Source: a virus (lineage: Duplodnaviria > Caudoviricetes). Taken from it: DNA of 64,000 nucleotides. Location: positions 1-64,000 of the IMG/VR virus record IMGVR_UViG_3300031994_000046; one strand, 5' to 3'. Numbering within the stretch: the stretch's first letter is position 1; every line of letters begins with the position of its first letter. The position numbers were made by a program, and so were the translations under genes. Shown piece after piece: positions 2,761 through 26,928 of this stretch. A model generated the notes under the pieces. It did no database searches. It was not told where the DNA came from and saw only the letters and a list, made by a program, of their open reading frames with translations.

Positions 2761-4065
2761 TTAATGTTCGTATTTAATTTCTGATTGTTTAATATTATCA
2801 AAGAATCTTACTGATTTCTTTTCATCCAAGTCGTTATCTCGTTCATATGCTCGTAATGCTTCAGATATAATCCAATATGTTGTACGAACTGGAACATTTT
2901 GACCAATCTGTGCATAACCTCTATATTTGTCGCCTTGAAGTTCAAAATCATGTGGCATACCCATCAAATGCAAAAGTTCTCTTATGTTCAATAATCTGTC
3001 TTCGTCATAATGTATACAACTTTGAACCATCTTAAACATTACAGCAGGACAAATACCATCTTCTTTCAATAATCTTGGCAATGAATGATAGACACCCTTT
3101 CCTTGAGACATCTTAAAATTGAAATGATCAACAAAGTGAATCATGTATTCTTTTCTCTTAGGCCATATACTCTCATATTTTGCAGTATAATCTAATATAT
3201 CATTCCAAAGTTTATTCTTAATTATATATTTGAATATATCATCACCAACTTCATTTCTCCAATTTTCTCCAAACTTATCTTTAAGATATCCTACAATATA
3301 ATGATTTACACAGTTAACAAATTCCATGTTCAAATCACCATCTTTATTAATTGCATCTTTTGGAATTCTATCAAAATATTCTTTAAGTGTTGTCTCAATT
3401 CTTTCAAACTCCATCTTAGGAGCAAAATCCTTCTTATAGAATATTATGAATGTACGTTTACGTGTCTGACAGTTATCGTGATATTTTGTATCTGTCTTAT
3501 AATAGTTTATTGAATAACCGTTTTCTTTTGCAAGCTCTTCTAATTTAACTCTTATATATTCTCCACGAATACCCATAAATGTTGGTGCATTCTCAAATAT
3601 ATAAATCTTAGGTTGAATGACTCTTAATGCATATTTAGCAATCCATATCATATTACAGTTTCTTGCTTCTAATGCTTCCTTTGATCCTTTCGTAGCTGTT
3701 GATAATCCTGAACATACTGGTACAGCTACACATAAATCCATGTTCGAATAATCTAATTCTTTATCAGGATTCAATGTCCAAAGACTATGATTCAATATTT
3801 CAGGATTCATATCATCATCATTCTGGAATGGCTTACGATTAAACACTTTATATTCTGGTCGGCGATTCACTTTATTCAAATAAGTCATTAAGTGATATTC
3901 ATTTCCACAACCAACAACCTCATTAGTTTCTTTATCAGTTACAGTATCACCAAATCCAGGGTAAGACAATATAAACTCTGCTGGGTGTCCAATTACTTTT
4001 TCTGTACCTAAGTACATACCACCAGTCAATGGTTGTATTGAACACCATTTAATATTTTTCTCCAT
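2761..4065 (-). CDS. dcm: C5 DNA cytosine methyltransferase, divergent motif I/IV
   Basis: Motif order: IQPLTGGM (I), VPVCSGLS (IV), FENAP (VI), QTRKRTFII (VIII), RLLNIRELLHLMGMPHDF (IX), QIGQNVP (X). Confidence 0.85.
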   Translation of the reverse strand: MEKNIKWCSIQPLTGGMYLGTEKVIGHPAEFILSYPGFGDTVTDKETNEVVGCGNEYHLMTYLNKVNRRPEYKVFNRKPFQNDDDMNPEILNHSLWTLNPDKELDYSNMDLCVAVPVCSGLSTATKGSKEALEARNCNMIWIAKYALRVIQPKIYIFENAPTFMGIRGEYIRVKLEELAKENGYSINYYKTDTKYHDNCQTRKRTFIIFYKKDFAPKMEFERIETTLKEYFDRIPKDAINKDGDLNMEFVNCVNHYIVGYLKDKFGENWRNEVGDDIFKYIIKNKLWNDILDYTAKYESIWPKRKEYMIHFVDHFNFKMSQGKGVYHSLPRLLKEDGICPAVMFKMVQSCIHYDEDRLLNIRELLHLMGMPHDFELQGDKYRGYAQIGQNVPVRTTYWIISEALRAYERDNDLDEKKSVRFFDNIKQSEIKYEH

Positions 4066-4904: not shown

Positions 4905-5126
4905 TTATATAAGTATTGTCTTAACTATTTTTATTTCATCTAATGGTATTTCAATAACTTCTTTTGTTATTGAATTGTTTTTCATTATTTTCTTACCACT
5001 ATTAAATATGTTGTCTAATTCTTCCTTAGTCAAAGGATGTGAATTGATTTTATTTTCTTTATAGTATAAATTAAAATATCTCACCTCTATATATAATATT
5101 AATTTATGATGTCCAAATACTATCAC
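4905..5126 (-). CDS. Hypothetical protein (start uncertain)
   Basis: Fills the gap between tape measure and gp3-like gene; GTG start, alternative GTG near 5084. Confidence 0.5.
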   Translation of the reverse strand: MIVFGHHKLILYIEVRYFNLYYKENKINSHPLTKEELDNIFNSGKKIMKNNSITKEVIEIPLDEIKIVKTILI

Positions 5127-8100: not shown

Positions 8101-10458
8101 AAATGTTTCTTTTACTTTTTCAGCAAAATGTGAATAAATAGCAATTATTCCACTTATGAATAATCCTAATACTGCAGCAAATCCAAATAATTCAGTTATA
8201 TTAACAAATCTCATAAATAATGATCCGAATACTAATACTGCTCCAGATAAAGCAATTAATAATCCGAGATCTTTAGCAGATGAAAATGAGCTTTCTAATT
8301 GATCTTTGCTTATCTTTGAATATACCCATAATATTCCAAATATAAATGCACCTAATGATACAGTAAATGATATTAATGATAAAGGATTAATGAAACTCAT
8401 CATTAATGTTCCAAATAATAAGACTGTTGTAGTTCCTATGACTAATTTCATTAAACTATTAAGCATTTTATTTGCTCCCTTTACATCATCTTCTTTTATC
8501 TGCTTAAATTTATTAGTTATTTCTAAAAGTTTATCAGTTACTCCAAGTATTCCATCTAAACTTTTTTCAGTTACATTTTCTAATAATTTTAAATTTGATA
8601 ACAAAGCAATTTTTGTTATAACCTTATCTAAAATATCGATTTTCTTTATAATATCTTCATTTATATCTACATCATTTTTTATATAATCTACAGTCGTCAT
8701 AAGTACTCTTAATTTAGATTCAATGGCGCCTGAAAATTTAGACATATCAATGCTTTCTAATAATTCAATATCAAGATTATTTAAAATTACTATTAATGAA
8801 TTAACTGCATCAACAAATGAAGTTATTGAATCAATCTTTGCTACAATATTATCACTAAGCTTATCTTCTATATCAGACATCACATAATCATTAAAAGCAT
8901 TAAGTGTTTGTTGTAACCCTTCGAATGTTAATGGTGTCTTGTATTTCTTATCTAATTTAGTTAACTTATTAAATAGTTTATTTACTATAACTAATTCAGT
9001 GTTTACATTAGTAAGTATCTTTAATATATCATTAATCTTTATTGTCCTTATATCTTCATTTACTTTATTTAATGTCTTAAGAATTTCTCCAAAATTTTCA
9101 AGATTTCTTGATATTTCTTTAAAATGATTTCTTTTTGCTTTAAATATATGTATTTTATATTTTTCTTGTAATTCATTTGGAAATAATATTACACTAATTG
9201 CATCAATTTCTTCTTGTATAAATGATAGTTTTATTATGCTTTTAAATATTGACATTATAGATGGCAACATTTTCTGCATATCATCAATACTATTAATTAA
9301 TGTAGTTATATTATTAATTCTTATAATTATATCATCTAAATTATCAAAACTTGTATTTATAGTTTCAATAAGTTTACTTATATCATTTTTTATTAAAGAA
9401 TTTATTAGTTCTATTGTTTCTTCATTATCTTCTAAATCTTTTGGATTTAATTTGAATATTGATAAAATTGAATTAATGCATTTATCTAATTTTTCTGTCT
9501 TATCTCCAAGATCGCTATTATTTTTCAACACATCATTAAGTGTTGTTATTATTGAAGGAATCTTATCTTTAATAAAATCATTTAAATAATTGATAGATAT
9601 CCTACTCCATAATATATCTTTTAAACTTAAAGAAGCTATACTTGGTATTGTATCAATGATATCTCTTAATGCAGATAAATGATCACTTATATCAATATCA
9701 TTTGTTGTTTTATATAATGTATCTATCTTTTCAAGTGTTTCATGTATTTTATTGATATATCCTTTATTAACGAAATCTAATGTTCTTTCAGATTTTTTTA
9801 ATTCATTTAAATTAATTTTTGATATTTCAGATAATGTTTGTATAATCTTACTAATTATATTTACATTATTAACTACATTTTTATCTAATTGACCTGAAAG
9901 ATTATCATTTATTGACTTTAAAAGATTTTTAAATGCAGGCTTACTAATAATTTCTTCCAATTCTTTAAATTTATCATCTTTTACTATTGATAATAAATCC
10001 TTTAAAGATTGTACTGCATTATTAGCATAATCAGATGAGCTAACAACTTTATTTATGTTAGATGATTTATTATCACCTAACATATCTTTAATTTCATTTA
10101 ATGTATCATTAATATTATCTAATTTATCTAAAGATGGATTTGTTATTCTTAAAGCAGCTCCATCAGCTGTTTTTGTAACAGCTTTTGCAATATTATTTAT
10201 ATTAACATATGTTCTCCCAAAAATAGAATTTTTTGGATTTTTAAATATACTTTCTATTTGATTAGGATCTTTTACATATCTACCAAATAATGCAGATGAT
10301 ATTCCTCTAAGGACAACTTCCATTAAATTAACTTCCTCTTCCCTTTCATTACCAGACTTACTTGGTATTTTAATTTTTTTACCAAATACTGATGTATTAT
10401 TCGCTATCTCTCCTAAAAGATCCTTTTGAGATTTGTTCTTAATATTATTATCTGCCAT
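5104..10458 (-). CDS. Tape measure protein (likely)
   Basis: 1784 aa, helical throughout, central Gly/Ala-rich hydrophobic repeats (~63-aa period, SAxDLGLLIAxSG), late-type motif upstream, next to a tail gene. Confidence 0.7.
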   Translation of the reverse strand: MADNNIKNKSQKDLLGEIANNTSVFGKKIKIPSKSGNEREEEVNLMEVVLRGISSALFGRYVKDPNQIESIFKNPKNSIFGRTYVNINNIAKAVTKTADGAALRITNPSLDKLDNINDTLNEIKDMLGDNKSSNINKVVSSSDYANNAVQSLKDLLSIVKDDKFKELEEIISKPAFKNLLKSINDNLSGQLDKNVVNNVNIISKIIQTLSEISKINLNELKKSERTLDFVNKGYINKIHETLEKIDTLYKTTNDIDISDHLSALRDIIDTIPSIASLSLKDILWSRISINYLNDFIKDKIPSIITTLNDVLKNNSDLGDKTEKLDKCINSILSIFKLNPKDLEDNEETIELINSLIKNDISKLIETINTSFDNLDDIIIRINNITTLINSIDDMQKMLPSIMSIFKSIIKLSFIQEEIDAISVILFPNELQEKYKIHIFKAKRNHFKEISRNLENFGEILKTLNKVNEDIRTIKINDILKILTNVNTELVIVNKLFNKLTKLDKKYKTPLTFEGLQQTLNAFNDYVMSDIEDKLSDNIVAKIDSITSFVDAVNSLIVILNNLDIELLESIDMSKFSGAIESKLRVLMTTVDYIKNDVDINEDIIKKIDILDKVITKIALLSNLKLLENVTEKSLDGILGVTDKLLEITNKFKQIKEDDVKGANKMLNSLMKLVIGTTTVLLFGTLMMSFINPLSLISFTVSLGAFIFGILWVYSKISKDQLESSFSSAKDLGLLIALSGAVLVFGSLFMRFVNITELFGFAAVLGLFISGIIAIYSHFAEKVKETFTSAYDLGLLIAISGGTLILGSLFYHFINWDDLVGFSLTLGAFIFGILGIYAFLNKWFGNAMKGAKEFSTLLGVSAGLLILGALIGNWLLENWKPIVKFGIMLFAFVSIFGAVWCGLSWIFNKALKGAKEFAILVTVSAAAMLLGPALINLYGGELGSNYWERLGAIAVWGIALGGFVLIVGWALSLANKNGKSSILGALALSVAIGVAAAALIAGPILLYESIGNDWWLHVFGFAVLLAGFIFGMTYLLKFVGKKIGDLALGAVGVVIIGAIAYGAAWVVKEISDMLFDVHWEDLLNGLGQMGLVFGAVGTVMGIIGGIVYGTGGAALLIAAGGAAVLATLEGLVWGAAKVINAIANSMMNLDKAAKIFKDGNNVQPMMEMINAFGNVLKLLCDKVSLKMAAKLPTIMPGVMMGIGALSMIGNVVKDWANMWVPDIDPKTGEKKGYRKLTNPEISEAITNIGNVIEAIGTAIRNVIDDPKNKDMFAEGFLSGKSPFRVVMESFKYSGDVLSSIAEGIKQWSSMAIPNGFDDKGKPKGYISLNDASLGEAKQNIENVLTAIGQAIFNTVNGKNAIYFAMGEDSPALIAAKSINITSQALINIADVIKKLSDKKFSEILKKMNNKDPKNPGVLESIKGIMESICDIVGLFLKPQPGSRSILGKFFKGEKTFAEHLNDSIGDINKSVKSIDVFSKDVIAILNSITKITDIIQSKKSGLDLISDTVYIWQLRLGLQNLMGLIDGVMQLDNKKLTKINESKQKFEVFGQFAKIIDDFINSIVKYDSTAQTNLIMLTEGMINLYMTTQFINKNLFFKEFVNDTERFIQAINTLDLSKISSLSQLTQALNEIASKFGNLDELTDALANKVTVVLLELVNQLRTAEAVIRNAHELQERRKKLIESNIKKVKEIMSQHMIVEIGKKEEPEQLSSGAPGTIKYPGETNTGGGSGNTTAELESPETPNQGAGDAEKEKIKNGVGSAKPLTADEFVNLMKKHMSDSIWTS

Positions 10459-14844: not shown

Positions 14845-15864
14845 ATGAAATCTTTTAATAGATATATAAGAGAACAACAGACATTAAATATTAATGATTT
14901 AATTTTAGAAGGTAGAATTAAGAACATGAGTGACACTGAATGGCTTAATTATCAATATGGTAGTGGAGATAGATATGGAGTTTATATTCAATCATTATTT
15001 GATAAAGTCCAAACACATGCTCTTTATGGAATATCAAGAGATGATGTTGAAGATTGGAAAGAAAGACTTAGTAAGAATAAAGGTATAAGTAGATTTAGAA
15101 AAGTAAATGCAACTAGTAAATATTATGCTATTCTTTGTTTTAAATATGATAGATCTAAAGATAAATCATATCAAGAAGCAGTAGATGGTGAAGCTGAACA
15201 AGAACGTAAAGAAGCGGAACAGTTTGATGCTGATGTAAAATCTGCAGATACATCTAAATATACTACTGATGATAAGCATATTGCTAAAATGAAAGCTTAT
15301 TTTAATAAACATTCAGATCCAGAAAGATTAGTTAAATCAATTAAAGATGATAAGAAACTTGTTGCACGATGGATAGCAGCTATTAAGATAAACTGGCCTG
15401 AAGCAGTGTCAGTATTTGGTTATGAAATTGAACATAAGAAACTTTTAACTAAAGCTGAAATTGTTGCATATAGTGAAAAATATAAAGCTGATGATGAAAA
15501 GGTTGATGATTCTGATATGAAAAGATTAGATAAAGATACAAAGAAAATAGCTGAAAGCTGGATTACTAAATCATTATATAAATATTTTGAATCATTAAAA
15601 GATTATACTATTGAATGGAAAGAAGCATTTAAAAATGCTAAAACTCAAGAAGGTAAAGAAGTTATGAGAAGAAACGGTAGAGCATGGACTGAAGGATTTA
15701 TTGTAACAGTTACTAAAGGTGAAAAATCTATAGATGTTACATTTGATGTAGTAACAAATGAAGGTGGAGGTCTTTATGGATATGTATTACAATATGGAAT
15801 AGTTAATTTAAAAGAGTTTAAAACTCAATTTAGCTCATTGCTTAAAAAGAAATTATATGATTAA
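14845..15864 (+). CDS. Putative internal head protein (capsid-targeting-type N-terminus)
   Basis: MKSFNRYIRE|QQ..DLILE|G; TTATTTTTA motif at 14811. Confidence 0.7.
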   Translation: MKSFNRYIREQQTLNINDLILEGRIKNMSDTEWLNYQYGSGDRYGVYIQSLFDKVQTHALYGISRDDVEDWKERLSKNKGISRFRKVNATSKYYAILCFKYDRSKDKSYQEAVDGEAEQERKEAEQFDADVKSADTSKYTTDDKHIAKMKAYFNKHSDPERLVKSIKDDKKLVARWIAAIKINWPEAVSVFGYEIEHKKLLTKAEIVAYSEKYKADDEKVDDSDMKRLDKDTKKIAESWITKSLYKYFESLKDYTIEWKEAFKNAKTQEGKEVMRRNGRAWTEGFIVTVTKGEKSIDVTFDVVTNEGGGLYGYVLQYGIVNLKEFKTQFSSLLKKKLYD

Positions 15865-15902
15865 TTTATAGTAAAACATAAAAAAATTTAAATATTAAAA
15901 AT

Positions 15903-16376
15903 ATGAAAAATATTAAAGATTTTATAATTACCGAAGGTAAATATGGACCTACTGGTAAAGAAGCAATTAAAATAATGAATTCAGAAGAATACAAAAAATA
16001 TCAAAGCATTTGTGATAAATATTTTAAACTTGCTAAAGAAAACGGTATAAAAGGTATTAGTGATTATTATGATACTATAGAAGTATGTTTACCACAAGTT
16101 AACGATGGTTTTACAAGAAGATTGTGCAGACATTTAGAATATGATGATAAATTTATTTGTATTCCAGGAAGCATTATTTATTATGTAATTAATAGAGATG
16201 AAGCATTTTCATTTTCAGTAACTTACGGTGGGCATGGACCTTCTACATATGTTTCTGGTGAACATATGGGTGGTATAAATGCTTTTAGTAGTAAAAAGGC
16301 AAATTGGGTAGCAAATTTAATAAAAGAATTGAATCCAGATACAAAATATACTGCTGAAGATTTTGAATCAGATTAA
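15903..16376 (+). CDS. Putative internal head protein (capsid-targeting-type N-terminus)
   Basis: MKNIKDFIITE|GK. Confidence 0.7.
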   Translation: MKNIKDFIITEGKYGPTGKEAIKIMNSEEYKKYQSICDKYFKLAKENGIKGISDYYDTIEVCLPQVNDGFTRRLCRHLEYDDKFICIPGSIIYYVINRDEAFSFSVTYGGHGPSTYVSGEHMGGINAFSSKKANWVANLIKELNPDTKYTAEDFESD

Positions 16377-16379
16377 AAC

Positions 16380-16409
16380 AAAAAGGAACTCAATATTGAG
16401 TTCCTTTTT
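16380..16409. terminator. Bidirectional intrinsic terminator
   Basis: Perfect palindrome aaaaaggaactcaat|attgagttccttttt between convergent genes. Confidence 0.85.
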
Positions 16410-16744
16410 TATTTCATATATAATACTTCTTTACTGTATGTTTCTGCAGTGAATTTCTCTACCTTACATCCTTTAGAATTTTCCCATCCAGGACACATAA
16501 GTATTGCATCACACAATATAACTTGTTCAATATCTCTACCCATATAATATGCAGTACGTTCAATTTTTGTATGAGTTTCTAAATCTTCTTCAGATATATG
16601 ATTACCATCAATTGGTGAAACAGCTTCATATCCAAGATCTATTGCATATTTACATGCTTCGTTATTTCTTTCATACACTGTATCTTCTTGACTTGCAATA
16701 GGTAGACTAATATAAATTTTCTTTAAAGTCTTTTTTCTTCCCAT
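16409..16744 (-). CDS. DUF4406 family (nucleoside 2-deoxyribosyltransferase-like fold)
   Basis: KIYISLPI...SP...YMGRDIEQVILCDAILMCPGWENSKGCKVE. Confidence 0.8.
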   Translation of the reverse strand: MGRKKTLKKIYISLPIASQEDTVYERNNEACKYAIDLGYEAVSPIDGNHISEEDLETHTKIERTAYYMGRDIEQVILCDAILMCPGWENSKGCKVEKFTAETYSKEVLYMK

Positions 16745-16749
16745 AATAT

Positions 16750-17511
16750 TTAATGTTTAATATCTGTACTTCCGAAACCAGAATCTCCTCTTTGAGAATT
16801 TTCCATTATCTTATTATATTCATCTTCTTGAGAATTTTCATAAACAGTATGAATAATTGGAATAAGCATCATTTGAACTAACTTATCTCCACAATAAACA
16901 ATATTCTGTCCTTCAACAAATAAATCTTTTGTATAAGATTGAGAAAGATGAACATATCCTGCATAATCCTCATCAACTAAACATGCACGAACATCCCATC
17001 CTCTATTTCCACATCCTGACTTATTTACATATAATCCTGCAATACCAAAACCTAATAGTTCTAGCATCTTACGTAAATTTTCAGTATTAGGTCCTTTGTC
17101 ATTCCATGCAGTTGGTAATGCTACTTTAATACCTGAATTAATAAATAATGTATCATTAAGTTTTAAAGAAACTCCAACTACATTTTTAGTTTTATCATAA
17201 ACTACAAAATTATTTATGAAATAAATTATAGCATGTTGAATTGATCCTGTTTTTGCTGATTCCAAATATTTATCATAAGTTGCTAAAAATAAATGAGTTA
17301 AATTAGCAGCTTGTTCTTTAACTTCATATTGCTTAATAAATTCTTGATAAATTGTATTAATCTGTTCAGTTGATTTATCGTAAGATTTTTCAAATGCCTT
17401 AAGTGCTAAATTGATCTGTTCTTTAGTTTTTAAATTAGGAATATAATAATCAGATCCTGCTGATGTAAATGAATTTGTTGGTGTTATTCCAAATGCATTA
17501 TAAATTTTCAT
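16750..17511 (-). CDS. dut: Trimeric dUTPase with large insertion
   Basis: SAGSDY (motif 1), KSG (2), LVDEDYAG (3), GDKLVQ (4), RGDSGFGST (5). Confidence 0.9.
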   Translation of the reverse strand: MKIYNAFGITPTNSFTSAGSDYYIPNLKTKEQINLALKAFEKSYDKSTEQINTIYQEFIKQYEVKEQAANLTHLFLATYDKYLESAKTGSIQHAIIYFINNFVVYDKTKNVVGVSLKLNDTLFINSGIKVALPTAWNDKGPNTENLRKMLELLGFGIAGLYVNKSGCGNRGWDVRACLVDEDYAGYVHLSQSYTKDLFVEGQNIVYCGDKLVQMMLIPIIHTVYENSQEDEYNKIMENSQRGDSGFGSTDIKH

Positions 17512-17542
17512 TAACTATTTAATATCATATATTTATAAAAAC

Positions 17543-17589
17543 AAAATAGTTTACATATTGATTCTTTTCAATAATATGTAAACTATTTT
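17543..17589 (-). promoter_or_regulatory. Promoter (TTGAAA-N17-TATTTT) embedded in a 17-bp inverted repeat/terminator
   Basis: aaaatagtttacatatt (17543-17559) / aatatgtaaactatttt (17573-17589). Confidence 0.6.
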
Positions 17590-17608
17590 TACAAGAACTA
17601 ACTATAAT

Positions 17609-18097
17609 TTAACGATTGTAGTTCTTAGGATTTTTTCCTTCTGCCAAGATTTCTTGACGTGTCTTAATAAATTCAAGATTCATATTTACAAGATAATTCT
17701 CAACAATATTTTTAAATCTACGGTATGTAAACTTACCTTGAATTTCAATAACCATAATAGGACTTTCCATTGCATTAATCATTGCAATTTCATATCCTAA
17801 TTGCTTATTTATTTTTGTATCACAAGGATGCTGCTTAGACATTCCAACAAATAATACATATTTATTATTTTTGTTTGTCTTAATTGGACCCTTTTCTCTT
17901 GGCCAATAACCTTCTCCTTCAATACCTACTTTATATAAGTTACCAACAAATGCTACAGCCTGCAATGTTCCGTACTTATCATATTTTCTACCATTAATAC
18001 TTACCTCCGTACATACATCCCTATTCTGGGTTGCTGTTGTATATTCGAAAGTGTTAATTAACTCTTTAAAACCAAAATTATTTGTATTAAATTCCAT
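17609..18097 (-). CDS. Hypothetical protein
   Basis: 162 aa; SKQHPCD...LGYEIA motif loosely resembles that of 46594-47073. Confidence 0.7.
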   Translation of the reverse strand: MEFNTNNFGFKELINTFEYTTATQNRDVCTEVSINGRKYDKYGTLQAVAFVGNLYKVGIEGEGYWPREKGPIKTNKNNKYVLFVGMSKQHPCDTKINKQLGYEIAMINAMESPIMVIEIQGKFTYRRFKNIVENYLVNMNLEFIKTRQEILAEGKNPKNYNR

Positions 18098-18142
18098 TTT
18101 TAAATTTTTTAGAGGTTATTATACTACAATTAATATAATGTT

Positions 18143-18171
18143 AAAATAGTTTAAAATATTTATATGTTCAA
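18143..18171 (-). promoter_or_regulatory. Sigma70-like phage promoter (TTGAAC-N17-TATTTT)
   Basis: Recurring motif. Confidence 0.5.
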
Positions 18172-18175
18172 TAAA

Positions 18176-18655
18176 TTAATAAAAAGTTTTTACATTTTTA
18201 TAATATCTTTCTTTACATAAACTAATATCGTCATTCGCTACAGGATCTTGTGCAACATACTTATATTCAAAACTATTTTTAACAGTTTTCATATCATATT
18301 GTTGTTCTTCAGTTGATGTTTCTATTTCATCATCAAAATATGTACACAAGAATTTTGATAAACCATCACTCCAAACAGTAAGATCAAATGATTCTACATA
18401 AAATTTATCTTCTAAATCTAAAAGTGTATCTTCATCTTTCATTGGAAGTGTATCAAATAAAAATGTGCATAAAGCATCAATAGAAACAAATGCAAAATAA
18501 CTATTCTTATAATATGGAACACAATGATTCCATGGCTTCATATTCTTAAAAAGCTCATTAATATAAATTTCACCAGGTGATTCATTATATGGATTTGGTA
18601 ATCCAAACACTAATTCACCATTATACTCTTTATGTTTTAATTTATAAACTTTCAT
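18176..18655 (-). CDS. Hypothetical protein
   Basis: 159 aa ORF. Confidence 0.7.
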   Translation of the reverse strand: MKVYKLKHKEYNGELVFGLPNPYNESPGEIYINELFKNMKPWNHCVPYYKNSYFAFVSIDALCTFLFDTLPMKDEDTLLDLEDKFYVESFDLTVWSDGLSKFLCTYFDDEIETSTEEQQYDMKTVKNSFEYKYVAQDPVANDDISLCKERYYKNVKTFY

Positions 18656-19046
18656 TATCTTCGTTTTTATTATTTTCTATAACTGGTATACACTTTGTCC
18701 AAAAACCAAATAAATCTAATTGATCTTCAAATGTTAATTTAGATACATCATAAACATCGTTTATTGAATGAATCTTAACTATTTCGCCATCACAATCAAA
18801 AATATAGTAAAAAGCAACACCATTTTTAAATTCAGAATCATATTCAACTTTAACAAATTTACCACATTTCATTGGCATTGTATGCATAACTGAATATTGA
18901 ACATACTTAACATTAGGATCTGGGAATCTGTATAAATCTCCTTCCTTTGGGCCAGGTCGGTTATTTATATCTTCCCAAAGATCTATTAAATATGGACTTC
19001 TTATGCTGACAAAATGATAAAATTCTTTATAGTCTTTAACTTTCAT
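18642..19046 (-). CDS. Hypothetical protein
   Basis: 134 aa ORF after a promoter motif. Confidence 0.7.
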   Translation of the reverse strand: MKVKDYKEFYHFVSIRSPYLIDLWEDINNRPGPKEGDLYRFPDPNVKYVQYSVMHTMPMKCGKFVKVEYDSEFKNGVAFYYIFDCDGEIVKIHSINDVYDVSKLTFEDQLDLFGFWTKCIPVIENNKNEDNESL

Positions 19047-19076
19047 AATTAATTAAATTTAATGATTAGATAAATA

Positions 19077-19105
19077 AATATAGATCACTAAAAAAAATAT
19101 TACAA
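19077..19105 (-). promoter_or_regulatory. Sigma70-like phage promoter (TTGTAA-N17-TATATT)
   Basis: Recurring motif. Confidence 0.5.
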
Positions 19106-19107
19106 AC

Positions 19108-19136
19108 AAAGGGTAGTTTTATTAAAACTACCCTTT
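19108..19136 (-). terminator. Intrinsic terminator ending the tagged-gene array
   Basis: aaagggtagtttt-att-aaaactacccttt. Confidence 0.8.
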
Positions 19137-19158
19137 ATTCTATAAATTATATTAAATT

Positions 19159-19356
19159 TTATTTTTCAATATTTGATTTTGGTTCTTTCTTATATGTTGC
19201 TTTATTATCTGCGCATTCTTTATTCAATTTTTCAACCTCTGCTTTAGCATCATCTTCAGAATCAAAATAATTTGTCATAGTACCGTCACCCATATAAACA
19301 ACAAATACTTGATTTTCATTTTCTTTTTCTAAAACAAATTCTTCTAATGATTTCAT
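19159..19356 (-). CDS. Putative internal head protein (65 aa)
   Basis: MKSLEEFVLE|K, closest match to T4 MKTYQEFIAE. Confidence 0.7.
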   Translation of the reverse strand: MKSLEEFVLEKENENQVFVVYMGDGTMTNYFDSEDDAKAEVEKLNKECADNKATYKKEPKSNIEK

Positions 19357-19394
19357 ATATGTCGTTCTATATATTTATCTTTAAGATTTTTCAT
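19353..19394 (-). other. Tag-only mini-ORF MKNLKDKYIERHI (13 aa)
   Basis: ATG at 19394; TGA overlaps the next ATG (ATGA coupling). Confidence 0.55.
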
Positions 19395-19396
19395 AT

Positions 19397-19874
19397 TTAT
19401 TTTTTTACTAATCTGTTTCCATTAATTTTAAGATCCTTACCTTCAACAAATTCAATATTTATAACTTTAAGATCACTTGAATTTACAACATATTCACAAA
19501 GAACAAATATTAATTCGTCTTTATGTTCAGCCTGTGCTTTAGTTAATTTAGTATTAGAATATTTCTTTCCCTTTTCAAATGATTTAATTTCAAATTTATC
19601 ACCCTTCATAGCGAAATCATACCAAGTTTCACCATCTTCAAATGTATTAACCAATTCTTTATGATCAGGTGTATCTTCAAACCCATATTTTTGAATGTAA
19701 TATTTAACAGCAGATTCAATAATATATCCTGCACATTTTCTTAATGCTGTACCAGTAAGTATTTCAGTTAATATCATTATCTTTTAAAGATGATAATAAT
19801 CCTTCTGAGTATCTATTGTAATCTTCATTTGAATGATTTTTACTTTCATTAATTATATCTGTTATGTTTTTCAT
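19397..19874 (-). pseudogene. Frameshift-split tagged PD-(D/E)xK-like protein (paralogue of 22059-22511)
   Basis: 5' ORF 19764-19874 MKNITDIINE|SK...KDNDIN*, 3' ORF 19397-19777 ..TEILTGTALRKCAGYIIE..WYDF..KFEIKSF; one extra A in ATTAACTG separates the frames. Confidence 0.75.
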
Positions 19875-19892
19875 AATTTTATTTAATATTTT

Positions 19893-20924
19893 TTATACTA
19901 AGTCTGAATCATCACCTCTTGAAGAATCATCTTCATCTTCTTCAGGTTTGTCCTTATTTTTATCATTATCTTTATCTTTATCATCTGAATCTTTATCATC
20001 CTCCTTGTCTTTATCATCTTCATCTTCTTTACGTTCTTTACGTTCACCATCTAATTTGAAGATAGAAGGATCATCTGTTTCTTTTGCTTCTAACATATCA
20101 AGAACAGATTCAATAAGTTTCTTCACTTCATCAGGTAATTGTACAATAGAATCTTTTGCAAAATCTTGTACCCAGATTCCTTCATCACCCTTTCCAAAGA
20201 TATGCATGATTGATCTTACATTTTCAGTAGTCTCACCACCAGGAAGAGTTTTTGTAAATTTCCAACGTAATGCTATAGCTTCTTTACCACTCTTAAACTT
20301 AATAGCAGCAAAATAATATTCACGAGGAAGACTTACTTGTTTAGCTACTAATAATTCTAATTCTTTAGCAGCTTTAACTTTATCATTAGACTCAATAAGT
20401 TCTAAAACTTTCTTTAATGTTATATCCTGCACTTCCTCTTCTTCATCTTCCTTAATGATTGAAGTCATTTCAAATTCATCAAGTAAAGATTCTTGAGCTT
20501 CTTGTGGAAATGCTGCAGCGTACATCTTAGCAGGATCTTGAGCTTGTTTCATATCATCTGGTGAAAAATAAACAATAAGATATCCACCAATATTGATTTT
20601 AGTTACTTTTGGAAGACCTTGTGCAATTATATATGAATATAAATTAGACTGTTGATAATTAACGTCATTATATAAACATGTATATAATAATTCATTAGTC
20701 TTCATATCGTTGATGAATCTTGAACTAGTCAACTTAATTGAACAACCATCTTCACCTTCATCAGCAACAATACCAAGATGAACACAATATAGATTTCTAA
20801 TATTTGTCAATATATTCTGAATTGGAGTATAATGATTAGTTACACCAGTCTTAACTAATGCATTGCCTGGTTGTTGATTAGATGTAGCACAAGCCTCATT
20901 TATTACATTACTAAATCTTTTCAT
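19893..20924 (-). CDS. Putative head/core protein with tag-like N-terminus and acidic tail
   Basis: MKRFSNVINE|A; internal SIIKE|D; C-terminal D/E/K low-complexity tail; TTATTTTTA upstream. Confidence 0.65.
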   Translation of the reverse strand: MKRFSNVINEACATSNQQPGNALVKTGVTNHYTPIQNILTNIRNLYCVHLGIVADEGEDGCSIKLTSSRFINDMKTNELLYTCLYNDVNYQQSNLYSYIIAQGLPKVTKINIGGYLIVYFSPDDMKQAQDPAKMYAAAFPQEAQESLLDEFEMTSIIKEDEEEEVQDITLKKVLELIESNDKVKAAKELELLVAKQVSLPREYYFAAIKFKSGKEAIALRWKFTKTLPGGETTENVRSIMHIFGKGDEGIWVQDFAKDSIVQLPDEVKKLIESVLDMLEAKETDDPSIFKLDGERKERKEDEDDKDKEDDKDSDDKDKDNDKNKDKPEEDEDDSSRGDDSDLV

Positions 20925-21003
20925 TATATTGTTATGTAAATTAATTTATCTTTATATTTTAAAAATAAAACTTTATTTAATCTTAATCTTATTTTCATAA
21001 TAT

Positions 21004-21669
21004 TTAAAATTGTCTCCAGAAATGCCATATCTGTTGTAATGTTGCTTTACTAAACTTACCTTCTGTATAGAATGCAGTTGGTAATAATCTTGCTGGTATA
21101 TTATAAGTAATACCACGTAAAACAGGAATGTACATTTTAGTTCCAAACGCTATCTTTTGATTTGTCTTTAATAAATGTTTTAATAATGAGTATGACATAA
21201 TAGTATTTGGTTTTGAACTTGCTTCGTTAAAATACTTTTCAAAATATGGTCTAAAATGTGTAAATACCAATTCTAGTATTCTTGCACGTGTATATGGGGG
21301 ATAATAATGTAGATTAAGCATACACTCACGAATATTACCATCATCTGTTCTTATAATTCCAAAACTTATACAGAATGGATAGTTATCATAATATTCTAGT
21401 TCTTCTTTAAATTTTGGTTGAGCATAATTAAATAAGACAACTTGACCTGGTAAGATATATTTCTTATCAGGTTTAAGATTTCTTAATATTTCTTTATATG
21501 CCAATTTAGAACGTATAGCAGTTGGCTTACGTGCTAATGGGTGATTATTGATAGACTCATTAAGTCTAAAAGATTTAATTTCTTCTTCAGTATAAATCTT
21601 TTTACTTAATTCTTTTAAATTAAATATGTGACCTAATGTAGTCTGTTCAGGTTTTTGTATAATTGGCAT
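21004..21669 (-). CDS. gp2: DNA end protector protein, T4 gp2-like
   Basis: PGQVVLFNY.PKFKEELEYYDNYP, LNLHYYPPYTR, KMYI pattern of the gp2 family. Confidence 0.85.
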   Translation of the reverse strand: MPIIQKPEQTTLGHIFNLKELSKKIYTEEEIKSFRLNESINNHPLARKPTAIRSKLAYKEILRNLKPDKKYILPGQVVLFNYAQPKFKEELEYYDNYPFCISFGIIRTDDGNIRECMLNLHYYPPYTRARILELVFTHFRPYFEKYFNEASSKPNTIMSYSLLKHLLKTNQKIAFGTKMYIPVLRGITYNIPARLLPTAFYTEGKFSKATLQQIWHFWRQF

Positions 21670-21688
21670 ATATTCTTACTTATATAAG

Positions 21689-22027
21689 TTATTGTATTTT
21701 TTCGTATATATTGTTTAAATCATAATCAAGATCATTTTCTCCTATTAAATAAATTATCTTTTTAATAAGTTCTAAATCATCTGCAATTATGTTTCTATTA
21801 ATCTTAGGATATGTTTGCTTATCTTCAAGGCAATCATATAAATCACTTAATTGCTTAAGTTCGTCTTCAGATAATTCTTTTTTGACTGTTTCAAAATTTT
21901 TAATGTCATCAATATCTCCCAAGTCACCTATTATATATCCTATGCATTCTACTAATGAATTTCTTTCATCATCAGTTAATGTAAAATACTTTGATTTTTC
22001 AAAAATAAAACTACTTATATTTTTCAT
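21689..22027 (-). CDS. Putative internal head protein
   Basis: MKNISSFIFE|K. Confidence 0.7.
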   Translation of the reverse strand: MKNISSFIFEKSKYFTLTDDERNSLVECIGYIIGDLGDIDDIKNFETVKKELSEDELKQLSDLYDCLEDKQTYPKINRNIIADDLELIKKIIYLIGENDLDYDLNNIYEKIQ

Positions 22028-22058
22028 ACTTCTATTTCATTAAATGTTTCATATTAAA

Positions 22059-22511
22059 TTATTTTTTTACTAATCTGTCATTATTTATTTTTAATTCAGA
22101 TCCTTTTACAAATTCAATATTGACAATATCAATTGAATTTTCTGCAGTATATTCAACTAATATAAATAAGATATCATTAATATTCTTTACTTGACTAGCA
22201 GTTAGTTTTGTATTAGAATATTTTTTACCTTTTTGAAATGATTTAACTTCAATTTTAGTATTATCATATAAGAAATCATAATATGTTTCTTCAGCAGCTT
22301 TAAACTTATTTGCAGAATCAGAATCTAAGTTTTGTATTTTTTCTTTAATCCATTCTTCTATTATATATCCTGCACATTTTGTTAAAAGTTTACCTTTTAT
22401 TTCAGTTGTTGTAATTGATTGTGTTTCAGATAAATCTTTTAATGCCGATTGTATCATATTAATATCATTATTATTTAATGATTCTTTATATAATTGAGTA
22501 ATAGTTTTCAT
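22059..22511 (-). CDS. Tagged PD-(D/E)xK-like protein (putative packaged nuclease)
   Basis: MKTITQLYKE|S; AGYIIE..YYDF..KIEVKSF. Confidence 0.65.
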   Translation of the reverse strand: MKTITQLYKESLNNNDINMIQSALKDLSETQSITTTEIKGKLLTKCAGYIIEEWIKEKIQNLDSDSANKFKAAEETYYDFLYDNTKIEVKSFQKGKKYSNTKLTASQVKNINDILFILVEYTAENSIDIVNIEFVKGSELKINNDRLVKK

Positions 22512-22551
22512 ACTTAATTTTAATTATTTTTATTTTAAATTCTTTACTATT

Positions 22552-22851
22552 TTATACTTCTATTTCATTGAAATTTTTAATCTTAAATTTTCCTGATACA
22601 TGATCATCTGCATAAAGAGTCACTTCATATTTAGTATCTATATATTCACCAATAAATACTAATTTATCATCTTCTGACTGCTCTTCATCAAAATCAAATC
22701 CTGCTTTATACATTGTATCTTTAATATCATCAATAGCTACCATTTTAAAACCATTTTTGATATTACCAAATTCTTTAAGAGCTAACCCAATTTCTTCATG
22801 AAGATCTTCAGATTGAGTTGATTCTAATATAAAATCTTTTATATCTTTCAT
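22552..22851 (-). CDS. Putative internal head protein
   Basis: MKDIKDFILE|S; acidic. Confidence 0.7.
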   Translation of the reverse strand: MKDIKDFILESTQSEDLHEEIGLALKEFGNIKNGFKMVAIDDIKDTMYKAGFDFDEEQSEDDKLVFIGEYIDTKYEVTLYADDHVSGKFKIKNFNEIEV

Positions 22852-22852
22852 A

Positions 22853-23095
22853 TTAATAAATTTCTTTATTTAAATCTTTTAATGTTTTTTCTATAAAATC
22901 CATACATCTTTTTTGAAATTTTGGATCTTTATTAGGATATTTTTCCATGCCTTCTTTAACTCCTTCAATAAAATGAGTAAGAACATTTCCACAAAATTCA
23001 GAACCCCATTCACTTATCCAAGTTCTCCCATAATTTTTAATACTATCAGAAGATGTACGAGATTCCTTTATTAAAGTATCTTTTAAGTCTTTCAT
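22853..23095 (-). CDS. Putative internal head protein
   Basis: MKDLKDTLIKE|S. Confidence 0.7.
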   Translation of the reverse strand: MKDLKDTLIKESRTSSDSIKNYGRTWISEWGSEFCGNVLTHFIEGVKEGMEKYPNKDPKFQKRCMDFIEKTLKDLNKEIY

Positions 23096-23103
23096 AATTA
23101 TAA

Positions 23104-23379
23104 TTATACATTATCTTTATATTCACTAAAATCAAGAAGTTTTTTCTTCTCGCAATAATCTCCAATAAGTTCAACGATATCTTGTAAATATCCTGCATCC
23201 TTATCTTTGTCACCTCTACAAATATCGGCTCCAGTCACTTCATTTATTATGTCCATAATAAATCTTAAAAATTCAGAAACATCTTTTGCTTCTTTATCTG
23301 CATAATCAAATACAGCATCCCAAGCTTTATTTTCTAAATTTCCACTTTCATTTATTAATCTTTCTTTAAGATCTTTCAT
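23104..23379 (-). CDS. Putative internal head protein (start corrected to 23379)
   Basis: MKDLKERLINE|S. Confidence 0.7.
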   Translation of the reverse strand: MKDLKERLINESGNLENKAWDAVFDYADKEAKDVSEFLRFIMDIINEVTGADICRGDKDKDAGYLQDIVELIGDYCEKKKLLDFSEYKDNV

Positions 23380-23381
23380 AT

Positions 23382-23690
23382 TTACCAAATTCTTATAATT
23401 GTTGAATTATCAATTTCAGTTGTATCACCAACCTTTAAATTATCAAGTTCTGAATAGAAACCTTCTTCAACACCAACAAAATCTTCGTATTCTTTTGAAG
23501 AATTTAATGCTTGAATACCAAAGAAATCATCTGATGAATTTATATAAATAAATCCTTTTTTAAATTTCTTTTGACCATCTTGAATATTGAATGTATGATA
23601 TTCTCCTCCCTTTCCAACTTCATTTTGAATTTCAGAAAAAAGGCGACAATATTTACCTTCGTTTATTAATGTATCTTTTAAGTTTTTCAT
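23382..23690 (-). CDS. Putative internal head protein
   Basis: MKNLKDTLINE|G. Confidence 0.7.
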   Translation of the reverse strand: MKNLKDTLINEGKYCRLFSEIQNEVGKGGEYHTFNIQDGQKKFKKGFIYINSSDDFFGIQALNSSKEYEDFVGVEEGFYSELDNLKVGDTTEIDNSTIIRIW

Positions 23691-23695
23691 AATAT

Positions 23696-23962
23696 TTATT
23701 CTTTATTTTCTTCTTTTTTGAAAAGAACTATCTTGGCTTCATCATCATCGTGGCCACCCATAGTTTCAATTATATTCAATAAGCTAACAACCAAATCAAA
23801 TTCATTTTCTTTTGCTTCTAAATCAAATTTCATTGCTTTGGCACCAGCACGAATAATATCTGATAATCTATCTAATTCTTCTTCAGTACAAATCATTGTT
23901 GATTTCTGACCATAAGAAGCTTTATTACGAACTTCATTAATTGTATCTACTATATCTTTCAT
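23696..23962 (-). CDS. Putative internal head protein
   Basis: MKDIVDTINE|V. Confidence 0.7.
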   Translation of the reverse strand: MKDIVDTINEVRNKASYGQKSTMICTEEELDRLSDIIRAGAKAMKFDLEAKENEFDLVVSLLNIIETMGGHDDDEAKIVLFKKEENKE

Positions 23963-23975
23963 AATTATTTTTTAT

Positions 23976-24188
23976 TTATATATTTTGTTTTTTAATTCCT
24001 ATATGCCAATATCCACAGACTTTACAAACATATGATGTGTATTTATACATTTTATATGTTTTAATCCATTCATCTGCTTCTTCTTGTGAATTGAATTTTT
24101 TCTTAGGTTTCCATTCACCATTTTTTCTGGTGTAATGTTCTCTTTTAATTGTATGCTTGTTGCAATCAGATCTTGGTTTTGTAATCAA
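23976..24188 (-). CDS. Small basic Zn-ribbon-like protein
   Basis: KKKFNSQEEA...YVCKVCGYWHIG. Confidence 0.65.
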   Translation of the reverse strand: MITKPRSDCNKHTIKREHYTRKNGEWKPKKKFNSQEEADEWIKTYKMYKYTSYVCKVCGYWHIGIKKQNI

Positions 24189-24248
24189 AATTTATTAAAA
24201 ATATATTTGGTATTCATTTATTTAACCTCTATATATTCTTATTTTAAT

Positions 24249-24674
24249 TTAATATCCTATACAACAAGACATATCGTACATATCAAATGGATCTTGTACT
24301 GTTCCTGCAGCATGACAATTAAGTGTTCCAACCATAAATGGATCTTCTGCTCCCTTTACATAGATTTCAACTTTGTATTGTTTCCATTGTGACATACCAT
24401 CTTTTGATTTATGATATCCGCCATTATCAGGAGAAATAGATACTTCATATTCATGTGGCGCATTTTTTATTGTCTTAAATGCATCTTCAATATCTTTTTT
24501 AACTAAACCAACGCCTTCCCAAGCATCATCATGATAAAATTTACCTGTTGTACCTGTCTTTTCGAGTTGTTTGTATATTGCATTTTGAACTTTTTTCTTT
24601 TCAGGAGCTTTAATTGTTTTATCTAATACACCATCTGAATATGATTCATTGAGTATATCCTTTAAATCTTTCAT
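24249..24674 (-). CDS. Putative internal head protein
   Basis: MKDLKDILNE|S. Confidence 0.7.
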   Translation of the reverse strand: MKDLKDILNESYSDGVLDKTIKAPEKKKVQNAIYKQLEKTGTTGKFYHDDAWEGVGLVKKDIEDAFKTIKNAPHEYEVSISPDNGGYHKSKDGMSQWKQYKVEIYVKGAEDPFMVGTLNCHAAGTVQDPFDMYDMSCCIGY

Positions 24675-24692
24675 ATATTTTATTAAATGATT

Positions 24693-25148
24693 TTATAATT
24701 TACTGATTATTTTATTTGCTACTATTAATGGATTCAAATCTTGTATTAATTCAATTTTATATTTATCACAAGTTAATTTTACATTATGCCATCTATAAAA
24801 ATTAGGAGTACAGAATACTACTATCTTTTTAGATTTAGCATATAATCCTAATTCAAGTAAACTTATAGGAGATTTTGATTCATCCAATAAAACCATAGCA
24901 ATCATATCGGCTTTATCTAAATGATCCTGTTCCCATTTGATTTGATTAACTAAATCATCTATTGGAGAATTAGGATTCCAATGTTCTCTACGAGGATTAT
25001 AGATATCACAATCAAATCCAAGATTAATCAATTCAATAATTGTTTTATCTTGCCAGTTTAATGAATCTCCATTATCAATTGTGCCAGCCAAAAACACTGA
25101 CTTATTTTTTGATTCTTGATTTTTTGTTTCAGGAGTTATGATTACCAT
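24693..25148 (-). CDS. Nucleoside 2-deoxyribosyltransferase-like protein
   Basis: VFLAGTID..NWQ, YNPRR, QIKWEQDHLDKAD, SPISLLELGL. Confidence 0.85.
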   Translation of the reverse strand: MVIITPETKNQESKNKSVFLAGTIDNGDSLNWQDKTIIELINLGFDCDIYNPRREHWNPNSPIDDLVNQIKWEQDHLDKADMIAMVLLDESKSPISLLELGLYAKSKKIVVFCTPNFYRWHNVKLTCDKYKIELIQDLNPLIVANKIISKL

Positions 25149-25477
25149 TTAATTCCTTTAATCATCATTATATTTATAAGTTCCATTTCAATAGCATCAA
25201 CGATCATTATAAGTTCATCATTTTCTTTTTCATTTTCATAAAGATCTTCAAGAAGTTTTTTAGCAGCCTTACGCATATCAATTATATTATTTAAAACATC
25301 TTGCATTGAACCTTCATTATTCTTCCATTTGAAATATGAATCGAATGGTTTAAGTTTATCGTTCTTTTTCCATTCGTCAATCATCTTCTTTTTGAATTCA
25401 TCTTGTTTCTTAAAGATATCATCAACTTCATTTTCATTAATGCATGATTCTTTAATATGATCAATTAATTGTTTCAT
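25142..25477 (-). CDS. Putative internal head protein
   Basis: MKQLIDHIKE|SCINE|N. Confidence 0.7.
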   Translation of the reverse strand: MKQLIDHIKESCINENEVDDIFKKQDEFKKKMIDEWKKNDKLKPFDSYFKWKNNEGSMQDVLNNIIDMRKAAKKLLEDLYENEKENDELIMIVDAIEMELINIMMIKGIKW

Positions 25478-25516
25478 ATATTATAATATAGTTTAATTTT
25501 AATCATTTAACTTTGT

Positions 25517-26455
25517 TTATAGTTTATATTTTCTTGGCCACCAACTTCTTTTTGAAGTCATTTTAGTACCCATGAACATATTATTTTTTGATCTAACTTT
25601 AGGTATAAACCATGAAGAAAGATTCTGATATATTTGTTTATTGTTTTTAAATATATTATCTATTGCTCCAACATTTTCTACATTCCACTTTGATATATCT
25701 TGGTTAAAAATAGAATCTTCAAACATCCCTTCCATATTAACTACATCTTTTGTAATCCAATTCGATATATCTTCATTAAACTTTTTTGTATGAGCAAACA
25801 TGTTTCCCATGCCATGAGCAGATGCAGTATTCCATTTTTTCAAACCATCACCTGTAAAGTTTTCACAATAACTAAACATACTTCCAAAATGCTTTACTTT
25901 ACTTACATCCCAATTTGATAGATCACAGTTAAAATCTTTACAATATGAAAACATACCTTGCATATCTGTTACTTTACTTACATCCCATTTAGAAAGATCA
26001 TCATTAAAATGAATGCATTTTTGGAACATATAACGCATATTAACAATATTACTTACATCCCAGTTTGCGATTCCATTTCCACCTCTATATTCAGATTCAC
26101 TAAACATTAATCCTGCATTTTCTAGGCTATCTAATTTCCAACTTGAAAAATCAGTATTTTCACCAGTAAATTTAGACTTATAAAACATATGTGATACGTT
26201 TTTTACACTACTAACATCCCAATTAGATATGTTTCCATTAAAATCAGATTCTCTAAATATAAATGACATATCAGTAATATTTGAAGTATCTATATTATTA
26301 AGATTAGCATTATTACCATTCTTTTTTATTTCCTGTTCAATGATTTCTTTTAATTCTTCTTTATCTTGTGGATGATATTTTGATTTACTATTATCAACTT
26401 TTATATTCTTGTTGATAATTAGTTTTTCAAACACAATATCTTTAAGATTTTTCAT
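25517..26455 (-). CDS. BspA/DUF285-type leucine-rich repeat protein with capsid-targeting-type N-terminus
   Basis: About nine ~23-26 aa repeats of (S/N)WDVSxVxxMxxMF; starts MKNLKDIVFE|K; no signal peptide. Confidence 0.85.
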   Translation of the reverse strand: MKNLKDIVFEKLIINKNIKVDNSKSKYHPQDKEELKEIIEQEIKKNGNNANLNNIDTSNITDMSFIFRESDFNGNISNWDVSSVKNVSHMFYKSKFTGENTDFSSWKLDSLENAGLMFSESEYRGGNGIANWDVSNIVNMRYMFQKCIHFNDDLSKWDVSKVTDMQGMFSYCKDFNCDLSNWDVSKVKHFGSMFSYCENFTGDGLKKWNTASAHGMGNMFAHTKKFNEDISNWITKDVVNMEGMFEDSIFNQDISKWNVENVGAIDNIFKNNKQIYQNLSSWFIPKVRSKNNMFMGTKMTSKRSWWPRKYKL

Positions 26456-26463
26456 ATTATATA

Positions 26464-26928
26464 TTATTCAAAAAATTTTTCTGTAACAATTATGAATTTT
26501 GCATTATTCTTATGAGCAAAATCATTAGCTGCTTTCCATTTGTCACAATTCTTAATCCAAGATTCTTTAAGCCATCTTGAATCTGTTGCTCCTGGTTTAA
26601 CAGTCTGACAATATGGTTTGATCTCAACTATTATCTTATTATTATCATTTGTTTCAAGAACATAATCAGGATAATAGTCATGTTCCTTTTCATCTAATCT
26701 ACAAGTATACCTTATAGCAATAGGTTCAGAAGCCCATTTTTTAATCTTAGGATTGTTTTCGCAAAACTGTATGAATTGCAATTCTAATCCAGAACGATAG
26801 ATAATAGGTTCTCCCTTTACTGATTGGAATAATTTTTTCGTATATTGAACTGGTACGTACCCTTGGTGGTATCTACTGTTCTTTTTAGGTTTATTGTTCT
26901 TAATCTTATTTTCGTATATCTTGCTCAT
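26464..26928 (-). CDS. gp4: Head completion nuclease, T4 gp4-like (TnsA-type)
   Basis: YHQG, IIYRSGLE, NPKIKKWASE, YYPDY, VEIKP..QT, KWKAA..FA..FIIVTE; ATG at 26928. Confidence 0.9.
   Translation of the reverse strand: MSKIYENKIKNNKPKKNSRYHQGYVPVQYTKKLFQSVKGEPIIYRSGLELQFIQFCENNPKIKKWASEPIAIRYTCRLDEKEHDYYPDYVLETNDNNKIIVEIKPYCQTVKPGATDSRWLKESWIKNCDKWKAANDFAHKNNAKFIIVTEKFFE

Follow-up and report, generated by a model that had tools for sequence, protein, structure and literature searches.

What is the function of a ten-residue leader that recurs at the start of one unrelated protein after another in a phage gene array? The array lies at positions 14845-26455 of the stretch of DNA analysed here, the window, which consists of the first 64,000 nucleotides of the Caudoviricetes virus record IMGVR_UViG_3300031994_000046. 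A preliminary description, made from the letters and their open reading frames (ORFs), read the leader as a modular address label that loads proteins into the phage head. We put the probability at roughly 70% that the leader is a capsid targeting sequence (CTS) of the phage T4 type. Going by T4, it would dock the freshly made protein on the scaffold core of the assembling prohead; after the shell has assembled, a gp21-type protease (Peptidase_S77, here S77) would cut just past the conserved glutamate, and the trimmed protein would stay in the head with the DNA. Delivery into the host, with roles in nuclease attack or counter-defence, would be a further guess. The consensus of the proposed CTS is M-K-[DNS]-[LI]-x-[DEN]-[FY]-I-x-E, after which comes S, G, A or K. 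By the same analogy, the approximately 15 mostly unrelated small genes probably form a large particle cargo.

The preliminary description listed 15 such N-termini, and we find every one of them, in sequence and in position. Fourteen head intact ORFs of 65-343 amino acids (aa), and the one at 19874 opens only 36 codons. That frameshifted piece and a leader-only mini-ORF at 19394 are the two leader remnants in the window besides the 14 intact genes. Using a pattern written from that description, ^MK.[ILFVM].{3,4}[ILVFY].E, we find the motif in 14 of the 23 genes within 14845-26455 and in 0 of the 50 genes elsewhere in the window (Fisher p = 2e-9), so that the proposed enrichment in the array is real. 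Shuffling the first 30 residues of every window protein results in a mean of 0.13 motif hits per window. The window has a guanine plus cytosine (GC) content of 26-29%, and we considered an artefact of AT bias at gene starts. It is excluded by the shuffled N-termini and because two equally AT-rich relatives, the uncultured phage LR756500 (24% GC, 5/667 genes) and Tenacibaculum phage PTm1 (2/297 genes), together show a background of only 0.7%. A single paralogue family is ruled out as well: BLASTP at E < 0.01 links none of the bodies except one paralogue pair, and in the clade of related phages we collect 73 distinct tagged proteins that fall into 41 unrelated body families. A secretion signal is ruled out by the leader having no hydrophobic stretch. 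Other parts of the preliminary description hold up too. The bodies are unrelated; 12 of the 15 window leaders have S, G, A or K after the glutamate; the array does adjoin head-completion genes, as the gp2 and gp4 homologues are confirmed; and the early metabolic genes (DNA polymerase, exonuclease, dUTPase-like, methyltransferase) all lack the pattern. The structural genes of the window also lack it.

The relatives of the window are 30-435 kb contigs from IMG/VR. In one of them, G001 (236 kb), the region 108.6-178.4 kb is collinear with the window but runs in the opposite orientation; the portal (PF07230, E 5e-80) and the large terminase of G001 are both of the T4 type. By portal, the nearest GenBank genomes are LR756500 (462 kb), Sphingomonas phage PAU, PTm1 and the Prevotella Lak megaphages; among GenBank phages there is no match to the array (megablast) or to its 343-aa cargo (tblastn). 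On the 435-kb contig IMGVR_UViG_3300021256_000054, the locus L002 has an array that is 87% identical to the window in nucleotides, with a gp2 that is 95% identical in amino acids. Searching species-representative genomes with the family of the 343-aa cargo identifies three rumen or goat-gut "MAGs" (metagenome-assembled genomes) with megaphage contigs, G002-G004. Contig 1 of G003 (400 kb) has 27 of the 73 window proteins, with their order kept around gp2 and gp4.

Arrays of this kind are found around gp2 at every related locus, and the gene set differs each time. In G001, 25 of 303 genes are tagged, in six clusters, one of which comes directly after the baseplate genes. In G003 contig 1 the count is 58 of 469 genes, in 41 body families. 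Of the 41 families into which the 73 tagged proteins of the clade fall, a few are present in all relatives, and most are in only one or two. The set is therefore as large and as quickly changing as proposed, with different contents even between close relatives. The leader logo is M-K-[DNSQ]-[LI]-x-[DEN]-[FY]-I-x-E-[SGKA]. Position 8 is Ile in 51 of 65 leaders and V or L in another 12, and position 11 is S, G, K or A in 49; the glutamate at position 10 is required by the search pattern. The leader ends in a gp21-type cleavage motif, (L/I)-x-E. Orthologues keep the pattern while swapping residues, as in MKTIDKYIIE versus MKQLIDHIKE, and positions with the same residue vary in codon (ATA or ATT for I; TTA, CTT or CTC for L). 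Public data contain 479 members of the family of the 343-aa cargo; we examined 120, and nearly all of these open with a 9-11-residue leader of the form M-[KR]-x-[FL]-...-h-x-E (h, hydrophobic), separated by a linker of variable length from the first conserved motif of the body. Homologues of the 150-aa cargo have leaders of 10-15 residues, which always end in [ILV]-x-E before S or A. In L002:9327-9641, the orthologue of window gene 22552-22851, a 5-residue insert (ENNIV) results in a 15-residue leader with two h-x-E sites and the same E/STQ junction, where the slash stands after the last leader residue. The insert may show the origin of the longer leaders in other megaphages. Because the pattern and the [ILV]-x-E junction survive changes of residue, codon and length, the constraint is on the peptide, and above all on its last residues. 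The leader is a portable tag, under peptide-level selection, on unrelated bodies.

We observe two further kinds of N-terminal element in these phages. LR756500.1 (L105-L128), in which an S77-scaffold fusion is present, uses a different 13-residue leader, MKYIKEYEEFILE followed by A, on 21 of its 667 genes; it ends in h-x-E. A second portable module follows the leader, either as E-[KR]-L-[VIL]-[IV]-N-K-[ND]-[YF]-K or as E-K-L-V-I-F-P-S-Q-V-[DN]-E-K-L. Of the 58 tagged G003 proteins, 24 have it, and these come from at least 14 BLAST-level families; several genes of G001 and a single gene of the window (26396-26455, minus strand) have it too.

Relatives with 87-90% DNA identity differ by gains, losses and replacements of cassettes, and the window has both a leader-only remnant and a frameshifted copy. 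This is also what one would see if the conserved 30 bases were mainly a DNA-level recombination joint for cassette swapping and the peptide had no function. We find that very improbable. The leaders differ from each other at many synonymous and non-synonymous sites while the residue pattern is kept, which leaves stretches of identical DNA that are too short to support homologous exchange efficiently. Such a joint could moreover coexist with a tag function, but it cannot replace it.

The comparison with T4 uses a weight matrix built only from the leaders of this clade. Among 71 T4 ORFs (two T4 stretches), the three top-scoring ones are ipII, ipIII and gp24, all of them gp21 substrates with short N-terminal propeptides (PMC5694885). 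In T4 (NC_000866), ipII and ipIII start MKTYQEFIAE and continue with A, and ipI starts MKTFKEF. The first two score 12.1 bits, and a score above 10 bits is reached by only 1 of 667 genes in LR756500 and 2 of 297 in PTm1. For the few leader-like genes of PTm1, the annotation is silent on virions.

A CTS requires a protease and a scaffold, and we find both in the lineage. In LR756500 and PTm1, the portal and capsid genes flank a gene for a Peptidase_S77 domain fused to a scaffold. All three of G002-G004 have the S77 protease, in an ORF of 563-576 aa, and a scaffold, which in G003 form the same kind of fusion. The G003 protease used as query finds a homologue on IMGVR_UViG_3300021256_000054, the contig that also holds the L002 array. 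This is a 575-aa fusion of Peptidase_S77 (PF03420, 41.1 bits against a Pfam cut-off of 27) and scaffold, and the gene next to it encodes a Gp23-family capsid protein (PF07068, 102 bits). Both a gp21-type (S77) protease-scaffold and a Gp23-type shell protein are encoded in this phage lineage. In the capsid protein (L300:9832-11610 and homologues), the first 41-42 residues are nearly invariant in eleven relatives; they end in AAIHEIHE/S, after which the sequence is variable. We predict from this pattern a propeptide and its cleavage site, as expected if the capsid protein is cut by the same enzyme.

The scaffold half of the 575-aa protein, at its C-terminus, has about 9 tandem units of W-[VI]-x-E-E-F-[AS]-P-E-V-Q-N (6-9 in relatives). 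Each unit contains hydrophobic-x-x-aromatic-[VI]-x-E, which is the class pattern of leader positions 4-10. With Trp allowed (h-x-x-aromatic-[ILV]-x-E), the scaffold tops 386 proteins by far (9 hits, p = 8e-10), a value to be read knowing that Trp was added after the scaffold had been seen and that the repeats are tandem copies of one unit and not independent. Because of this post hoc widening and copying, the likeness between scaffold and leader is a resemblance, not a test. It would fit a bolder version of the CTS reading, possible although we would sooner bet against it, in which about one gene in ten is tagged, the tag imitates one scaffold repeat, the cargo co-assembles and is freed by the protease, and the tag marks, by sequence alone, the complete packaged, probably injected, proteome. 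Nucleases and many small acidic, possibly anti-defence, proteins would then be part of that proteome.

Elsewhere the searches for head genes are negative. G001 has no head protease or capsid gene by PF03420, PF07068, the T4, PTm1 and LR756500 proteins or our own hidden Markov models; it is a contig without the head module. A search of IMG/VR with a protease profile and another search with a degenerate DNA pattern find only unrelated marine phages among the matches listed. Directly after the G001 portal, at G001:93963-94394 (L011:13963-14394), there is a 143-aa protein that matches phrog_15610, annotated 'protease' (E 3e-28), and is not S77-like; this is the position at which T4-like phages would have their head protease.

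The tagged genes and their immediate neighbours in the window are as follows, with a slash after the last leader residue.

14845-15864, plus strand: tagged, 339 aa, MKSFNRYIRE/Q; body without assigned function, 81% identical to the G001 orthologue
15903-16376, plus strand: tagged, 157 aa, 11-residue leader MKNIKDFIITE/G; orphan body
19159-19356, minus strand: tagged, 65 aa, MKSLEEFVLE/K; kept in five relatives
19353-19394, minus strand: leader-only mini-ORF, MKNLKDKYIERHI and stop, 13 codons; out of frame with the next tagged gene, whose start it overlaps
19397-19874, minus strand: frameshifted tagged gene; leader MKNITDIINE/S (36 codons), 126-aa body at 19397-19777 in another frame
19893-20924, minus strand: tagged, 343 aa, MKRFSNVINE/A; just downstream of gp2; two folded domains and an acidic tail
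21004-21669, minus strand: gp2-type DNA end protector, no leader; phrog_429 E 4e-14, T4 gp2 E 6e-8
21689-22027, minus strand: tagged, 112 aa, MKNISSFIFE/K; acidic
22059-22511, minus strand: tagged, 150 aa, MKTITQLYKE/S; predicted PD-(D/E)xK restriction-endonuclease fold; conserved E52, D79, E88-x-K90
22552-22851, minus strand: tagged, 99 aa, MKDIKDFILE/S
22853-23095, minus strand: tagged, 80 aa, MKDLKDTLIKE/S
23104-23379, minus strand: tagged, 91 aa, MKDLKERLINE/S
23382-23690, minus strand: tagged, 102 aa, MKNLKDTLINE/G
23696-23962, minus strand: tagged, 88 aa, MKDIVDTINE/V
24249-24674, minus strand: tagged, 141 aa, MKDLKDILNE/S
24693-25148, minus strand: untagged gene within the array, nucleoside 2-deoxyribosyltransferase-like; PF15891 E 2e-23
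25142-25477, minus strand: tagged, 111 aa, MKQLIDHIKE/S
25517-26455, minus strand: tagged DUF285 repeat protein, 312 aa, MKNLKDIVFE/KLIINK; PF03382 E 4e-65; BspA-type in the preliminary description
26464-26928, minus strand: gp4-type head completion protein, no leader; phrog_218 E 7e-34, T4 gp4 E 4e-19

The mini-ORF at 19353-19394 is probably the remnant of a lost cassette; relatives carry a 102-aa tagged gene at this position. The body at 19397-19777 is 47% identical to the tagged gene 22059-22511, the paralogue pair mentioned above, which identifies 19397-19874 as a frameshifted copy. The split could make it a pseudogene or be an assembly error.

Without the leader, the mature cargoes would be proteins of 6-38 kDa, most of which have no match in Pfam or PHROGs. 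For 22059-22511, the AlphaFold2 model has a mean predicted local distance difference test score (pLDDT) of 84 and a predicted template modelling score of 0.80, and leader residues 1-9 are its only segment of low confidence. Its top Foldseek matches are the type II restriction enzymes NlaIV (E 1.7e-4), SwaI, HincII and EcoRV, and D79, E88 and K90 are invariant in 14 homologues. The model predicts for this protein the core alpha/beta PD-(D/E)xK fold of restriction endonucleases. For the 343-aa cargo the model is mediocre (pLDDT 65). It shows two folded domains and an acidic tail, and residues 1-32, which comprise leader and linker, are disordered. The leader is detached from the folded domains, and the model has no fold match.

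Everything that links the tag to the S77 protease-scaffold fits equally well a tag for head assembly or processing whose cargo is not delivered to the host. Such cargo could work within the prohead or head, where it might condense DNA, assist the scaffold or be a precursor of decoration proteins, or it could be degraded and expelled like scaffold, and T4 does have core proteins that are cut by gp21 and are not effectors (gp67, gp68 and gp22; PMC5694885). We regard this as unlikely, although the least unlikely of the alternatives to the main reading. The bodies are folded, diverse and fast-changing, and they include a nuclease fold and a repeat-protein binder, which suits proteins of conflict better than parts of an assembly; and T4 IPI is an injected inhibitor (PMC3012670). 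By analogy with IPI, injection and counter-defence roles for the cargoes described here are plausible.

Several results weigh against the leader being a CTS. The gp21-like protease that the preliminary description presupposed is found as an S77 fusion on the 435-kb contig of a relative with a near-identical array, and not in the window, where the searches made find no head protease, scaffold or capsid gene. The link to the protease depends on that close relative. The strict leader-derived pattern, with F or Y only, has 0 matches in the scaffold, and, as said above, the wider one was drawn up post hoc on repeats that copy one unit. A shared late promoter for the tagged genes is not found; TATAAAG is mildly enriched upstream of them, without a tie to the structural genes. 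The cargoes are mostly acidic, with a median isoelectric point of 4.8. A restriction-type nuclease carried in the head would endanger the phage genome itself unless the genome is protected. The evidence consists of sequences and structure models. Finally, every leader has AAA as its second codon, and the identity of codons between leaders, 0.80, is somewhat higher than the expected 0.65, because of which an RNA-level or translational constraint may add to the leader signal.

This last point bears on a reading in which the signal is unrelated to capsids: an enhancer of translation start for genes that have no Shine-Dalgarno sequence, an N-terminal stability or degradation signal, or a handle for a phage chaperone or for another compartment of the cell. 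No Shine-Dalgarno sequences are seen upstream of the window genes, and the tie of the tagged proteins to virions is indirect, which together with the codon bias would suit such a signal. We consider it improbable, somewhat more so than a tag on undelivered head proteins. The highly expressed structural genes and the early genes of the same genomes do not have the motif. The invariant Glu at position 10 and the Ile at position 8 are kept with varying codons. A relative of the same base composition has a different leader, of 13 residues, that also ends in h-x-E, and the clade matrix singles out exactly gp21 substrates in T4.

A few other observations concern the window and its relatives. The window genes 2761-4065, 16750-17511 and 24693-25148 encode a DNA methyltransferase, a dUTPase-like protein and the nucleoside 2-deoxyribosyltransferase-like protein. 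They may point to modified phage DNA, and the modification could shield it from a packaged nuclease. The window also encodes a family-B DNA polymerase, a tail fibre and large structural proteins. The only family match of a 1784-aa protein at 5104-10458 (minus strand) is a weak SseC-like stretch, and in G001 conservation of the protein is limited to the C-terminal third (32% identity). The rumen MAGs RUG343 (labelled Firmicutes) and RUG13941 (labelled Erysipelotrichaceae) contain the contigs ONIZ01000001.1 (L264, 410 kb) and CADBGE010000001.1 (L265, 400 kb). The latter is G003 contig 1, and its sequence, which includes a portal, an S77 protease and a Gp23 capsid gene, is that of a megaphage. 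The bacterial name given to the MAG is not to be taken as the host of the phage; Bacteroidales are a plausible candidate host.

The giant phages of gut and rumen have yet to be brought into culture, and the majority of their genes are without a known role. If the tag works as in T4, a simple sequence rule names dozens of particle-borne proteins per phage. These would be present in the cell as soon as infection begins, so that the tagged genes would amount to a ranked list of candidates for host takeover and counter-defence. The rule would also contribute to an explanation of part of the extra coding capacity of megaphages. The leader could in addition serve as a natural peptide tag with which foreign proteins are loaded into large capsids.

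As for the preliminary description, its address label stands in part: the portable T4-like tag with its h-x-E end, the S77 protease-scaffold of the lineage and the big, changing set are there, and the rest goes by analogy. As a new principle it was overstated. T-even phages already had a diverse set of internal proteins with only the CTS in common, as PMC3012670 reports, citing Repoila 1994. What is new is the scale (8-12% of genes), the distant lineage with its protease-scaffold fusion, and a cargo with a nuclease fold. We found no paper that links megaphages or this group of jumbo phages to a capsid targeting sequence.

The closest known system is T4 itself, where IPI, IPII, IPIII, Alt and gp24 carry the CTS and the prohead protease gp21 cleaves it off (Mullaney and Black 1996, as cited in PMC3012670 and PMC5694885). 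As in T4, the tag described here has 10 residues at the N-terminus, starts with MK and ends in [IL]-x-E before A, S or G, and the lineage has a T4-type portal, gp2, gp4, an S77 protease and a Gp23 capsid protein. The neighbourhood is also the same: T4 ipI shares its strand with 57B-57A-1-3-2-4, and the tagged genes of the window are beside gp2 and gp4. Unlike T4, these phages have dozens of tagged genes per genome (25/303 and 58/469) instead of a handful, a protease fused to a scaffold of W-[VI]-x-E-E-F repeats, and cargoes that are mostly acidic and up to 38 kDa. They have genomes of 0.24-0.44 Mb, are distant from Straboviridae and are known from sequence alone. The arrays resemble the polymorphic internal-protein loci of T-even phages, in which, according to the summary of Repoila et al. 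1994 in PMC3012670, unrelated genes share only the CTS and the set varies among related phages. The arrays here are several-fold larger, occur as several clusters per genome and belong to an uncultured rumen and gut megaphage lineage. The inner-body and ejection proteins of phiKZ and SPN3US are another case of giant phages with many head proteins, where a gp21-related protease (gp175/gp245) removes N-terminal propeptides that are probably prohead-targeting (PMC5694885, PMC13282480). Those propeptides are mostly longer than 100 residues and share no short tag, the lineage is unrelated, and a T4-type scaffold is not confirmed there. Another parallel is the cargo-loading peptide of encapsulins, a short portable peptide that sends unrelated cargo inside an HK97-fold shell; in contrast to what is proposed for the leader described here, it is usually C-terminal, remains uncleaved and binds the shell protein instead of a scaffold.

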